Positions 18,489-23,868 of a stretch of 26,601 nucleotides of DNA are shown here, one piece after another (positions within the stretch are counted from its first letter, which is position 1; each line of letters starts with the position of its first letter). Location: contig JBDGTY010000005.1 in assembly GCA_042216335.1 (NCBI GenBank), positions 1 to 26,601 on the forward strand, written 5' to 3'. Origin of the DNA: Candidatus Nanohalobium sp. GTDB taxonomy: Archaea; Nanohalarchaeota; Nanosalinia; Nanosalinales; Nanosalinaceae. The notes beneath the pieces were generated by a model. The model did not search any database, was not told the DNA's origin, and saw only the letters and a list, made by a program, of their open reading frames with translations. The translations under genes and the position numbers were made by a program.

Positions 18489-18593
18489 TGCGGCGTCCGT
18501 GATTTGAACACGGGTTCCTGCCAATCTGCCGCAAAGATCGGTTGACCTTTGGTTGGCAAGGCAGTGTCTTAGACCAAACTGGACCAACGCCGC
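18489..18593 (-). tRNA. tRNA-Gly(GCC) with a 30-nt BHB intron at 37/38 (intron 18524-18553)
   Basis: Acceptor GCGGCGT/ACGCCGC, anticodon stem CTGCC/GGCAG, T-arm CCGTG-TTCAAAT-CACGG; TTGC pairs with intron GCAG, followed by an AT^T bulge. Confidence 0.95.
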
Positions 18594-21659: not shown

Positions 21660-21790
21660 GAGTCTGTAGCTCAGCTGGACAGAGCACTCGGTTCCTAAAT
21701 CCCTGTTCCACTGTGAAGAGGGTTCAAGAAAATCTGTGATTTTCAACTGGAGATACCGAGAGGTCGAGGGTTCAAATCCCTCCAGACTCG
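21660..21790 (+). tRNA. tRNA-Arg(CCT) with a 57-nt intron at 37/38 (intron 21698-21754)
   Basis: Acceptor GAGTCTG/CAGACTC, D-stem GCTC/GAGC, anticodon stem CTCGG/CCGAG, T-arm GAGGG-TTCAAAT-CCCTC; TTCC pairs with intron GGAG. Confidence 0.95.
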
Positions 21791-21797
21791 CAGCCAG

Positions 21798-21830: not shown

Positions 21831-22100
21831 GCAGGGGTAGCCAAGTGGTCAAACTCCTGAGAGTTTGAAATCACAGAAAACCCTCAGCGGTTTTCGAGTG
21901 GTCAAACTCCTTACGGAGTTTTTCCTCGAACCATCTCTAACGAGAAAGTTCGATGGTCAAAGGCTAGAGGAGGACCAGAGGCGCAGCGTTCAGGAAACGA
22001 CTTTCTCCCCCGAGAGAAGGTCGTTGGAGAAGACGAATGTCTTCGATTTGAGATGCGCTGTCCCCTAGCGGGTTCGCAGGTTCAAATCCTGCCTCCTGCA
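21831..22100 (+). tRNA. tRNA-Leu(CAG) with two introns: 126 nt in the D-loop (about 21/22; 21853-21978) and 60 nt at 37/38 (21995-22054)
   Basis: The spliced product GCAGGGGTAGCCAAGTGGTCAA|AGGCGCAGCGTTCAGG|GCGCTGTCCCCTAGCGGGTTCGCAGGTTCAAATCCTGCCTCCTGCA is a typical 84-nt archaeal Leu tRNA; BHB1 is GGTC/GACC plus CTCCT/AGGAG; BHB2 is TTCA/TGAG. Confidence 0.92.
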
Positions 22101-22205: not shown

Positions 22206-22458
22206 GGGCCCGTAGCTCAGCTTGGACAGAGCATTCGGCTTCGGAGGCATGTTACGCTACGCCAACGCAACAAGCCATGCCTTATATGGCTTCCGGAAAG
22301 CTTGTGGATTCGAGGCGTAGCCGACTCGGTGAAACCAGTTTCACTCGATCGACTGAAATCTATTATTTCATCGAGGAATGGAACCCTAGTGACAGTCAGG
22401 TCGTAGGGCTCCGACCTAAGATACCGAAAGGTCCAGGGTTCAAATCCCTGCGGGCTCG
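22206..22458 (+). tRNA. tRNA-Arg(TCG) with a 178-nt intron at 37/38 (intron 22245-22422)
   Basis: Acceptor GGGCCCG/CGGGCTC, anticodon stem TTCGG/CCGAA, T-arm CAGGG-TTCAAAT-CCCTG; relaxed BHB CTTC/TAAG plus GG/CC. Confidence 0.92.
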
Positions 22459-22512
22459 TTATCAATCCGTTAATTTCTGGGAGAACTGTGGAACTGCTTC
22501 GTCTGGCAGTCC

Positions 22513-22535
22513 GTTTGAATCCCTGCGGGCTCGTT
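22513..22535 (+). repeat. Duplicated tRNA-Arg 3' end (att-like direct repeat)
   Basis: AATCCCTGCGGGCTCGTT is identical at 22443-22460 and 22518-22535; 21 of 23 bases match when extended to the GTT. Confidence 0.85.
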
Positions 22536-22671
22536 TCTGTCGTTGCTGTCTTTTCCCGAAGGAATGTTTTTGTATTTTATAAAGATGGCTGCGTTAGTTT
22601 TTGACGTGTAGATGGGATTGATTGACCGGTTGAGAGATCTGGTTTCCCGGCTTGAAGAAAAGGTGATAATT

Positions 22672-23868
22672 ATGTCGAATGAGGATAGCTCGCAGGGTTC
22701 GGAGGAGAACAAGGAAAAGCAGAAATCGGGGAAGAAGCAGAAGGTACAGTTCCCGCAGTACTTTCAGCAGCAGCGGCGTACGAAGCCGAAGAACCCGAAC
22801 AGCACCGACCTGAAAACCCCTGTCATGCGGGGTGTCGTCGTCTCGGAGTTCGACGGTGACAGGATCTGGGTAGAGGCTTCAGGCAACATGAAGGGACGTT
22901 ACGGCGTCGAGGTACCGAACGGTTACGAGCCTTCAGACTTCCAGCCTGGGACGGAGGTTGCACTCGATCCCAACAGCTTCAAGGTAACGGATATCGTTGA
23001 CAAGGGCCGGGATGCAGAGTTCCAGCCGGTAGATACCGACGTAACCTTCCAGGATATCGGAGGTCTTGACCATGTCATCCAGAGTCTTTCCTCGAATGTC
23101 GGAGCCCAGTTGAACAGCAACAAGCTGGAGAAAATCCAGTCCTGGGGGATGAACATGGACAAAAGCATACTACTTATCGGACGGCCAGGAACCGGAAAGA
23201 CACACCTTGTCAAGGCGTTGAGCAACGAGTACGACGCCAACATGTTCATGGTCAACGGCCCGCAGCTGGTCGAAAAGTTCATAGGGGAAGGAGCCAAGAA
23301 AGTCAAGCGCCTCTATGAACAGGCCCGCGCCTCGGAGAAACCAGCGATCGTGTTCATCGACGAGATAGACGCCATCGCCAAGAAACGTCTCGACGACAGG
23401 AGACACGGTGGAGAGGAAGTCGAGAGAACGATGAGCCAGCTTCTATCCGAGCTTGACGGACTGGACAGCGAGGAAGGAAACGTCATCAGCATCTTCGCCT
23501 CCAACACGCCGGACATCATCGACCCAGCACTGCTGAACAGGACTTCCGCCATCGAAGTGCCGGTACCCAACAGGGAGGCCAAGGAAGAAATCCTCAAGGT
23601 CCACACAAGGCAGATGGATCTCGACGACGGAATCGACCTCGGCATGATCGCCGAAGAACTCGACGAAGAGTTCACAGGCCGCGACATAAAACAGATCGCC
23701 AAACAGGCCGCCGTCAACGCACTCGACGCCAGCGACGACTTCTCAAACGCACAGGTCGGCATGGAAGACTTCAAAGAATCCATCCAGGACCTGAAAGACG
23801 GCAACCTCGGAGTCGAGAAAGACTTCCTCGGCACAGCCAACGAACATCCAAACGAGATGTTCGCCTAA
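22672..23868 (+). CDS. Divergent proteasome-activating nucleotidase (PAN)-like AAA+ ATPase
   Basis: PGTEVALD OB-like region, VTFQDIGGL, GRPGTGKT, KFIGEGA, IVFIDEIDAIA, EVERTM.QLL.ELDG, C-terminal MFA; AGGTGAT SD before the ATG at 22672. Confidence 0.85.
   Translation: MSNEDSSQGSEENKEKQKSGKKQKVQFPQYFQQQRRTKPKNPNSTDLKTPVMRGVVVSEFDGDRIWVEASGNMKGRYGVEVPNGYEPSDFQPGTEVALDPNSFKVTDIVDKGRDAEFQPVDTDVTFQDIGGLDHVIQSLSSNVGAQLNSNKLEKIQSWGMNMDKSILLIGRPGTGKTHLVKALSNEYDANMFMVNGPQLVEKFIGEGAKKVKRLYEQARASEKPAIVFIDEIDAIAKKRLDDRRHGGEEVERTMSQLLSELDGLDSEEGNVISIFASNTPDIIDPALLNRTSAIEVPVPNREAKEEILKVHTRQMDLDDGIDLGMIAEELDEEFTGRDIKQIAKQAAVNALDASDDFSNAQVGMEDFKESIQDLKDGNLGVEKDFLGTANEHPNEMFA

Follow-up and report, generated by a model that had tools for sequence, protein, structure and literature searches.

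What the 178-nt intron of the tRNA-Arg(TCG) gene of a Candidatus Nanohalobium sp. consists of, and why its 3' end does not pair perfectly with the anticodon loop that it interrupts, is the question raised by this locus. The gene lies in a window of 26,601 nucleotides, the window being the whole stretch of DNA analysed here (contig JBDGTY010000005.1, our C45), from a genome of 1.02 Mb in 74 contigs that is 96% complete. Positions given without a contig or locus name are those of the window. We take it that a genuine intron here interrupts a single-copy tRNA-Arg(UCG) gene at the canonical position, and that this intron is probably a spliceable composite of small mobile structured DNA elements of this phylum. 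Alignments and covariance models show the intron as a mosaic of three recurring, putatively structured modules, denoted R1, the double hairpin and R2; the same comparisons show that the modules recur outside tRNAs and in both orientations, and that congeners differ at the same site. While the transposition of archaeal introns is known, the modular nanohaloarchaeal version described here is best read as new.

The gene was called by ARAGORN with introns allowed as tRNA-Arg(tcg) at positions 22206-22458 with an intron of 178 nt; both the default mode of ARAGORN and the Rfam scan at the gathering threshold missed it. All its parts are on the forward strand. The 5' exon (nt 1-37) occupies positions 22206-22244, the intron, situated between nt 37 and 38, positions 22245-22422, and the 3' exon (nt 38-73) positions 22423-22458. 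Reading of the sequence places the anticodon TCG at 22241-22243, G37 at 22244 and A38 at 22423, and yields the acceptor stem GGGCCCG/CGGGCTC and the anticodon stem TTCGG/CCGAA. The joined exons coincide with the Arg-TCG sequence of five intron-less relatives, and since these orthologues match the joined exons, the intron boundaries are fixed to within one ambiguous A. Hence the intron proposed in the original prediction is confirmed by the ARAGORN call, the sequence and the orthologues, and its description as long, multi-domain and too short to encode a homing endonuclease is correct. A DNA contig from the metagenome run X1 spans positions 22216-22451 with no differences, so the intron is not an assembly artefact. 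Moreover, a contig from a separate study (X3) has a full-length copy that is about 90% identical; over 255 nt it differs by 24 substitutions and 8 gaps. Nucleotides 1-40 of the tRNA exons are 100% identical in congeners, and ARAGORN with introns found no further Arg-TCG gene in this 96% complete genome. The genome is intron-rich, with introns in 22 of the 34 tRNA genes called by ARAGORN, and further long ones include those of Trp (213 nt), Lys-TTT (156 nt) and Arg-GCG (137 nt) and two more, of 120 and 109 nt.

The bulge-helix-bulge (BHB) site is atypical. The 5' strand of the central helix is formed by nt 32-35, CTTC (22239-22242, forward strand), and its partner is TAAG at 22417-22420. The pairs are C32-G, U33-A and U34-A, and C35 (22242) is opposite U (22417); both the helix and the C-U mismatch are as originally predicted. 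The bulges may be drawn as G36-G37-A and A-U-A38, and the adjoining helix h' is GG/CC, only 2 bp long. Instead of the strict hBHBh' form, with a 4-bp helix between two 3-nt bulges, the Arg-TCG intron has three base pairs and C35.U, that is, a relaxed form. A comparison of canonical introns in the source genome (19 rows, of which three were dropped as ARAGORN miscalls) shows a perfect 4-bp central helix in 15 of 16 cases, the Arg-TCG intron being the sole mismatched one. A single splicing-endonuclease gene was identified (C10:9728-10009), encoding a protein of 181 amino acids with the N-terminal and catalytic domains PF02778 and PF01974, and by this domain content the enzyme is assigned to the alpha4 architecture.

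The intron opens with R1 and closes with R2. R1 (22245-22270, forward strand) comprises the hairpin P1 (22246-50 paired with 22259-63), its loop GTTACGCT (22251-58) and the linker ACGCAA (22265-70); in RNA the loop reads GUUACGCU and the linker ACACGCAA. The P1 stem of the source intron has one A.C mismatch. In the alignment of nine copies (A1), all six P1 pairs are changed on both sides and 90.7% of cells are paired, and the 8-nt loop is invariant in all nine. The R1 covariance model, assigning 36.2 bits to the source copy, found the module at E≤0.01 in 45 of 70 genomes, with at most 24 matches per genome and five in the source genome. These are the 70 genomes of the order; a phylum-level search returned the same 70, so the scope of this and the following counts is this phylum.

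The placement of R1 was recorded for 31 copies in 30 loci. Eight open a tRNA intron immediately past nt 37, nine start at the discriminator base of a complete called tRNA, and 14 lie elsewhere, including four that come after a tRNA-like 3' end not called as a gene. The 17 copies linked to a tRNA all share its strand. A copy on contig C37 of the source genome follows a tRNA 3' end and is itself followed by a hairpin and a T-run. For nine of the 38 R1 copies examined, the immediately upstream sequence recurs 37-114 nt downstream as an exact direct repeat of 12-40 nt; among the sequences repeated in this way are a tRNA 3' end, a tRNA 5' end of 17 nt, and the ribosome-binding site with the start of an L32e-like gene.

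Two further observations concern R1. The tRNA-Trp(CCA) gene of the source genome (C53:22014-22300, locus L038) has a 213-nt intron that opens with R1, contains TGATGA-type and CTGA-type motifs and yields no Rfam match at E≤0.01. By analogy with euryarchaeal pre-tRNA-Trp, this intron may hold a box C/D guide. The R1 motif is also seen in 10 IMG/VR contigs, and as none of them has the P1 stem or a tRNA nearby, these occurrences were taken as chance.

R2 (22306-22422, forward strand) consists of the S1 stem ATTC/GAAT (22308-11 with 22376-79), the S2/S3 hairpin (22380-22412) and the tail GACC-TAAG-AT (22413-22422). S1 has the layout ATTC-GA-GGCGTAGCC-GA ... GAAT, with a tandem GA and apical GGCGTAGCC, and S2/S3 is arranged as GGAACCCTA-GTGAC-loop-GGTC-TAGGGCTCC. 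The covariance model, built from nine copies, scores the source copy at 71.7 bits and finds R2 in 25 genomes from three of the five families. In the alignment of 33 copies (A4), 88.5% of cells are paired and six of 12 pairs are changed on both sides, these figures being biased toward the model structure, as the alignment was fitted to the model.

Most of the aligned R2 copies, 25 of 33, lie within introns. Nineteen of these have the orientation of the tRNA, and their TAAGAT end lies 0-18 nt from the 3' splice site (11 at zero distance; the distance of 18 nt is an ARAGORN boundary error, corrected on re-reading); the other six are inverted, with TAAGAT 1-2 nt away from the 5' splice site. In all 25 it is the TAAGAT end that adjoins a splice site, whatever the orientation. 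An inverted R2 at the 5' end together with a direct R2 at the 3' end is seen in two introns (L105 and L108). The eight copies outside called tRNAs occupy diverse positions. In two genomes from different families, R2 is situated in the spacer between scpA-like and scpB-like genes (L009 286-410 in G038; L113 1501-1563 in G052); at the scpB-like site the terminal AT of R2 serves as the first two bases of the ATG, and the left flank also ends with TAAG. This may be either an old insertion that was retained or a hot spot. Other non-tRNA sites are between two co-oriented open reading frames (ORFs; G032) and immediately 5' of the GTG of an rpl3-like ORF. R2 also stands immediately 5' of nt 1 of tRNA-Ile and tRNA-Ala, one further copy precedes a repeated tRNA-Phe 3' segment, and another is flanked by an approximately 50-nt repeat of a gene 3' end.

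At three places, L058 (G030), L054/L064 and L099 (G039), copies of R1 or R2 are accompanied by exact direct repeats of the target, 14-50 nt long. The repeated targets are the ribosome-binding site and start of an L32e-like gene, another gene start, and a gene 3' end. Repeats of this kind far exceed the usual length of target-site duplications.

The third module is nested in S1. It is a near-palindromic double hairpin (22325-22375, forward strand) delineated in alignment A2, with a CTCG..CGAG frame enclosing the hairpins 22329-44 and 22354-70. Compared to the 129-nt Arg-TCG intron of the congener G001, GAAT in the source intron is set apart from the second GA of S1 by 51 additional bases (22325-22375), and these are exactly the 51-nt double hairpin, absent from G001. 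In the alignment of 10 copies from seven genomes, 87% of cells are paired, five of 13 pairs covary, and the central palindrome TTTCACTCGA-TCGAGTGAAA is almost invariant. The double hairpin occupies the same S1 position in the source genome, G012, G032 and G038. It is embedded in other backbones in the Val-TAC intron of G039 and, inside P1, in the Thr-GGT intron of G007, and is also seen at sites without a called tRNA, in non-tRNA spacers. Like miniature inverted-repeat transposable elements (MITEs), R1, R2 and the double hairpin are multi-copy and non-coding, reside at unrelated loci and differ in presence between relatives.

The orthologous site shows turnover. Within the genus, the Arg-TCG intron has 129 nt in G001, 72 nt in G002 and 60 nt in G003, versus 178 nt in the source genome; in other genera its length is 124, 92, 70, 67, 63, 61 and about 70 nt, and five genomes have no intron. 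The length of 178 nt, as against 129 nt in the congener and 0-124 nt elsewhere, is explained by module gain. In G002 and G003 the intron is an unrelated two-hairpin one, with a perfectly pairing GAAG end, and two unrelated intron families are seen at one Arg-TCG site within one genus (the source genome and G001 versus G002 and G003).

In alignment A2 the order of parts from 5' to 3' is R1, hairpin P2, spacer, R2. P2 (AAGCCAT/ATGGCTT, 22272-22292, forward strand) is predicted by RNAalifold from this alignment, with eight pairs, four of them changed on both sides. The identical order is observed in the introns of Arg-TCG in G001, Arg-GCG in G003 (184 nt), Thr-TGT in G017 (126 nt), Val-TAC in G012 (about 199 nt; miscalled by ARAGORN as Cys), Thr-GGT in G007 (190 nt) and Thr-CGT in G002 (179 nt), the latter being 82% identical to the source intron over the last 82 nt. 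Homologous introns thus span isoacceptors, as in the transposed tRNA-intron families of the Thermoproteales type. The suggestion that the intron had been transferred from another tRNA is supported by this shared architecture of the Arg-GCG, Thr-TGT, Thr-CGT, Thr-GGT and Val-TAC introns, although the TAAG end on which it was based is not necessarily the relic of one host. The kinship is detectable only with covariance models. Sequence comparison with the source genome itself (blastn-short), proposed as a check together with one against viruses, gave no other copy at E≤1 except one 14-nt word, and the intron has no blastn match in 50,697 phage records.

Two other groups of introns were noted. 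A second, unrelated family (H1+H2) accounts for most short introns of the source genome, for instance positions 21713-21740 of the window in tRNA-Arg(CCT). Its hairpin has the form R-A-GAAR-stem-loop-stem-YTTC-G-A, such as GAGAAGATC..GATCTTCGA, with GA on both flanks, and stands shortly before the 3' end of many introns of 57-70 nt. Another 5'-end module, AACTGC-CGTA-GCAGTT-GGCAATAC, is found in Arg-TCT (C48) and Ser-CGA (C58) of the source genome and in L075 and L110; its stem is as in many P1 copies, and its loop is different (CCGTAG). A hairpin resembling this module precedes repeated tRNA 3' ends.

We can now return to the mismatch. The ends of 12 introns of the family, TAAG or TAGG, were compared to nt 32-35 of their hosts: four are fully paired, all in Thr-TGT, seven have one mismatch (three Arg-TCG, three Arg-TCT and one Thr-CGT), and one, in Lys-CTT, has two. 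The mismatched TAAG end is kept in Arg-TCG of G001 and G017; in Val-TAC of G012, hand reading shows TAAG to be fully paired. It had been pointed out that the mismatch would become a pair in a UAN or UGN anticodon, and indeed TAAG pairs perfectly with the Val-UAC and Thr-UGU loops. At the same time, TAAG(AT) is retained where R2 precedes start codons or tRNA 5' ends, and the introns of Arg-GCG (G003) and Trp-CCA (G042) do not end with CTAAG but extend beyond it by an adaptor that matches the host, GCAA-AT or GGAG-AG. Since TAAG is kept at non-tRNA sites and before host-matched adaptors, we regard it as R2's own fixed end, and the C35.U mismatch is explained by this terminus not being tuned to the host anticodon. 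Judging from these alignments, TAAG best suits U34-R35 anticodons, yet R2 occupies hosts regardless of fit.

The predicted folding of the intron is complex. Every helix listed in the original prediction is present in the sequence, exactly in place or shifted by at most 1 nt. These are GCTACGCC/GGCGTAGC (22256-63/22314-21), ACAAGC/GCTTGT (22270-75/22300-05), the small hairpins GTGAAAC/GTTTCAC (22329-44) and TGAAAT/ATTTCA (22354-70), GGAACCCTA/TAGGGCTCC (22380-88/22404-12, with one A.C mismatch) and AGGCATG/CATGCCT (22245-51/22276-82). The minimum free energy (MFE) of the intron is -57.7 kcal/mol (z = -2.6), and five of 300 dinucleotide shuffles are equally low; in this model the intron folds more than expected by chance. 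In the unconstrained ensemble of the precursor, the pairing probability is 0.96 for GCTACGCC/GGCGTAGC, 0.94-0.98 for GGAACCCTA/TAGGGCTCC, about 0.55 for P2, about 0.41 for ACAAGC/GCTTGT, which overlaps and competes with P2, and about 0.29 for the two small hairpins. The AGGCATG/CATGCCT helix, proposed as an alternative that would cover the 5' splice site, is present as sequence, but its probability is about zero and it is not conserved in the homologues read. The comparative data back the two small hairpins, GGAACCCTA/TAGGGCTCC and P2, and P1 with S1 is supported by covariation across the intron family.

For the seven aligned introns, RNAalifold also pairs the P1 loop with the apical GGCGTAGCC of S1. 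At the centre of this S1-loop partner T, C or G occurs with no compensating change, and among the composite introns only one sub-lineage has the GCGTAGC form. A kissing contact of the two loops, or a folding switch, is possible on these predictions, and we keep it as a lead only. A K-turn or C/D reading of the GA-flanked hairpins was rejected by eye: S1 has tandem G.A, but neither a 3-nt bulge nor a C box.

On the preferred reading, that of a spliceable mobile composite, the pre-tRNA would be cut by the single 181-aa alpha4-type endonuclease at a relaxed BHB. The proposed site is formed by the anticodon stem, the 3-nt bulge A-U-A38, C32-U33-U34 paired with A-A-G together with C35.U, and the bulge G36-G37-A; next to the 5' bulge there would be either the 2-bp GG/CC helix or hairpin P1, which begins 1 nt past the splice site. 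In this context, Kaneta et al. 2018 (PMC5829648) link DPANN alpha4 enzymes that carry an 'L3' loop to a greater extent of tRNA gene disruption. The modules would spread at the DNA level. Most likely, they are kept as selfish or tolerated elements as long as they can still be spliced, rather than for an RNA needed by the host.

Several points weigh against this reading. The comparative fold has a free energy of -77.2 kcal/mol versus the MFE of -94.5 kcal/mol, that is, about 17 kcal/mol higher, and in this particular sequence the folding model favours the long-range helix GCTACGCC/GGCGTAGC over P1 and S1. The nearest-neighbour model assigns the canonical central helix of the Arg-TCG precursor a probability of about zero; this is weak evidence, because six of the 15 other introns of the source genome also score below 0.25 in the same model. 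Further, Kaneta et al. 2018 describe alpha4 endonucleases as classically thought to be strict for the BHB. The Arg-TCG intron is not bordered by a clean target-site duplication, and no transposase or recombinase is linked to the modules, Y1_Tnp (PF01797) having no matches in the source genome and other families not having been searched. An IS200/IS605-type transposase was rejected as the mobiliser on the same ground. Finally, an 8-nt loop invariant throughout the phylum, together with R2 preceding the scpB-like gene in two families, seems to exceed what a purely selfish element needs.

A more specific view of the mobile elements themselves deserves attention, even if we can only advance it tentatively. 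R1 and R2 may be two end types of an undescribed class of archaeal mobile elements that settle at sites of RNA processing, with the loop GUUACGCU as a recognition site. The sites would be the anticodon loop and both ends of tRNAs, as well as the nucleotide that precedes a start codon. In tRNA genes the elements would survive because their two ends give the splicing endonuclease what it requires, a hairpin adjoining the bulge on the 5' side and TAAG as the strand opposite C32-U33-N34, and the GUUACGCU loop would be recognised by a factor of the host or of the element.

Rather unlikely, in our view, is the explanation that the intron, or its R1 part, encodes a small RNA with a function of its own or an element acting in cis on processing, by way of the loop GUUACGCU and the linker ACACGCAA. 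Its 5' end at R1 would be set by the splicing endonuclease in introns or by RNase Z in tRNA trailers, and it might, for instance, pair with the S1 loop GGCGUAGCC in cis or with nt 7-11 of the tRNA, which are conserved (G-U-R-G-Y), or bind a protein. The conservation of R1 speaks for it: the loop is invariant in nine of nine copies while all six stem pairs covary, the module is present in 45 of 70 genomes, and the 17 tRNA-linked copies not only share the tRNA strand but begin where the RNA is cleaved. A hairpin and a T-run come after R1 in trailers, as on C37. The pairing of the P1 and S1 loops has probability 0.96 in the source intron in addition to its prediction from the seven introns, and R2 precedes the scpB-like start codon in two families. 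On the other hand, the S1-loop partner is uncompensated at its centre and has the GCGTAGC form only in one sub-lineage, as already mentioned, and many Arg-TCG orthologues have no intron at all. R2 occurs in both orientations, which would not be tolerable for a function at the RNA level. Nor does the intron resemble a described RNA: the Rfam scan of the window region (gathering threshold and E≤10), proposed for the candidate intron-encoded RNA, returned only tRNA or chance-level rows and no described family of non-coding RNAs (ncRNAs), the same being true of 10 other R1/R2 loci at E≤0.01. The interval 22245-22422 contains no TGATGA or C box RUGAUGA, and its one CTGA gives no paired D box.

The sequence downstream of the gene bears on another explanation. 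A hairpin (22490-22512) stands there ahead of a repeat of the tRNA 3' end, AATCCCTGCGGGCTCGT (22518-22534; the first copy is at 22443-22459), the feature as a whole occupying 22490-22534 on the forward strand. The duplicated AATCCCTGCGGGCTCGT is the last 17 nt of tRNA-Arg. The duplication is missing in the congener G001, and in G002 the same place contains R1, a hairpin and a second copy of the tRNA 3' end. By its sequence the segment 22459-22534 looks like what is left of an element that once inserted at the 3' end of the tRNA. Such repeated duplication of tRNA 3' ends around inserted elements, in the source locus, G002, L059, L062 and L071, marks these ends as insertion targets and agrees with the idea that the intron is retained as a shield, the interrupted gene removing the attachment sequence of integrating viruses and plasmids. 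This protection model is the Randau-Soll idea, as presented in the summary given by PMC3293823. We find it very improbable here. The duplicated part begins at the T-loop, runs to the end of the tRNA and does not include the anticodon loop, and would therefore be left whole by an intron at 37/38; the source locus has both the intron and the 3' duplication; and the conserved modules are left unexplained. Least probable of all is a decaying pseudogene, made unspliceable by insertions, with CGA and CGG read in another way: it would account for the weak BHB (three base pairs and a mismatch, h' of 2 bp), the near-zero probability of the canonical helix and the A.C mismatch in P1, but the exons are intact with nt 1-40 identical in congeners, this is the sole Arg-TCG gene found in a 96% complete genome, three Arg-TCT genes, like the Arg-TCG genes of G001 and G017, keep the same mismatched TAAG end, and a full-length, about 90% identical copy exists in a metagenome of another study.

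The neighbouring AAA-ATPase gene (22612-23868) shows 73-82% identity to genes of Candidatus Nanohalobium and other Nanohaloarchaea, which marks the source organism as a nanohaloarchaeon (DPANN). The window contains other disrupted tRNA genes. Gly-GCC at 18489-18593 (reverse strand) has a 30-nt intron and Arg-CCT at 21660-21791 (forward strand) a 57-nt intron, both with a perfect 4-bp central helix; the neighbouring Arg-CCT gene of G001 is intron-less. The region 21831-22100 is labelled by ARAGORN as tRNA-Arg(cct) with a 186-nt intron, whereas comparison with an intron-less Leu-CAG gene (L014) identifies it as tRNA-Leu(CAG) with exons at 21831-21853, 21980-21994 and 22055-22100 and two introns, one of 126 nt in the D-loop and one of 60 nt at 37/38. 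The D-loop intron holds an internal repeat of the exon junction GTGGTCAAAC. A metagenome contig precisely omits positions 21995-22054, the 37/38 intron of this gene.

The Arg-TCG intron can be compared with several known systems. It shares with canonical archaeal BHB introns the site 37/38, 1 nt 3' of the anticodon, a 3-nt bulge at each splice site, the extension of the anticodon stem by a helix of nt 32-35 with the intron 3' end, and a tRNA_int_endo-family endonuclease in the genome. It differs from them in having 178 nt and about 10 helices, three pairs with C.U, an h' of two pairs that competes with a local hairpin, and modules that also occur outside introns. The Thermoproteales have very similar introns in tRNA genes of different isoacceptors, implying DNA-level transfer by an unknown mechanism, according to the account of Fujishima et al. 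2010 available from a review (PMC4090602). To the extent covered by that account, homologous introns across isoacceptors are the feature shared with the nanohaloarchaeal family. The differences are that here the host is a DPANN archaeon with a single alpha4-type endonuclease, in contrast to the (alpha-beta)2 type, that the introns are modular and nested, with one module having a phylum-wide invariant loop, and that the modules also flank tRNA genes on either side and reside in mRNA leaders, the same end being toward the exon whichever way they are oriented.

Euryarchaeal pre-tRNA-Trp has a long intron encoding a box C/D guide RNA. The Arg-TCG intron has a similarly unusual length and a conserved internal structure, but it lacks the C box, the paired D box and an Rfam match. 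Small palindromic repeats of reduced or compact genomes are represented by the Rickettsia palindromic elements, Correia- and ERIC-type elements and MITEs. Like them, the modules are multi-copy, hairpin-forming and non-coding, 50-130 nt long, inserted in RNA genes and spacers, nested, in both orientations, and present or absent between close relatives. We know of no sequence relation between these repeats and R1 or R2. Unlike the 2-10-nt duplications of the former, the flanking repeats of R1 and R2, where present, are target copies of 12-50 nt, and the copies in tRNA genes would be removable as RNA by the splicing endonuclease. In Nanoarchaeum equitans, split tRNA genes have leader and trailer sequences. 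R1 is trailer-like, following a tRNA 5' half or a whole tRNA, R2 is leader-like, preceding a 3' half or a tRNA 5' end, and their loops are complementary in the Arg-TCG intron; in contrast to split genes, the halves of tRNA-Arg(TCG) are contiguous, and no separate half-genes were seen. For Caldiarchaeum it has been proposed (PMC3293823) that mobile elements integrate at the ends of tRNAs, a process accompanied by direct repeats and, possibly, the gain of introns, and an Asgard preprint reports that it found no general route of arrival. The literature search, with supplements and figures outside it, retrieved no description of nanohaloarchaeal tRNA introns, MITEs or repeats of this kind.

For the question of how archaeal tRNA introns are gained and move between genes, it matters that in this phylum the pieces of the introns can be traced as discrete alignable modules. 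Modules that occur in and out of tRNA genes, in both orientations with one end always at the junction, and that differ between congeners turn this into a tractable comparative and biochemical problem. One prediction is that a single alpha4-type endonuclease handles relaxed BHB substrates. In practical terms, because default tRNA finders miss such genes, the tRNA sets of DPANN genomes are under-called. If the tentative view of R1 and R2 as ends of one class of mobile elements is true, this class would be a vehicle for the gain, exchange and enlargement of BHB introns in Nanohaloarchaeota.

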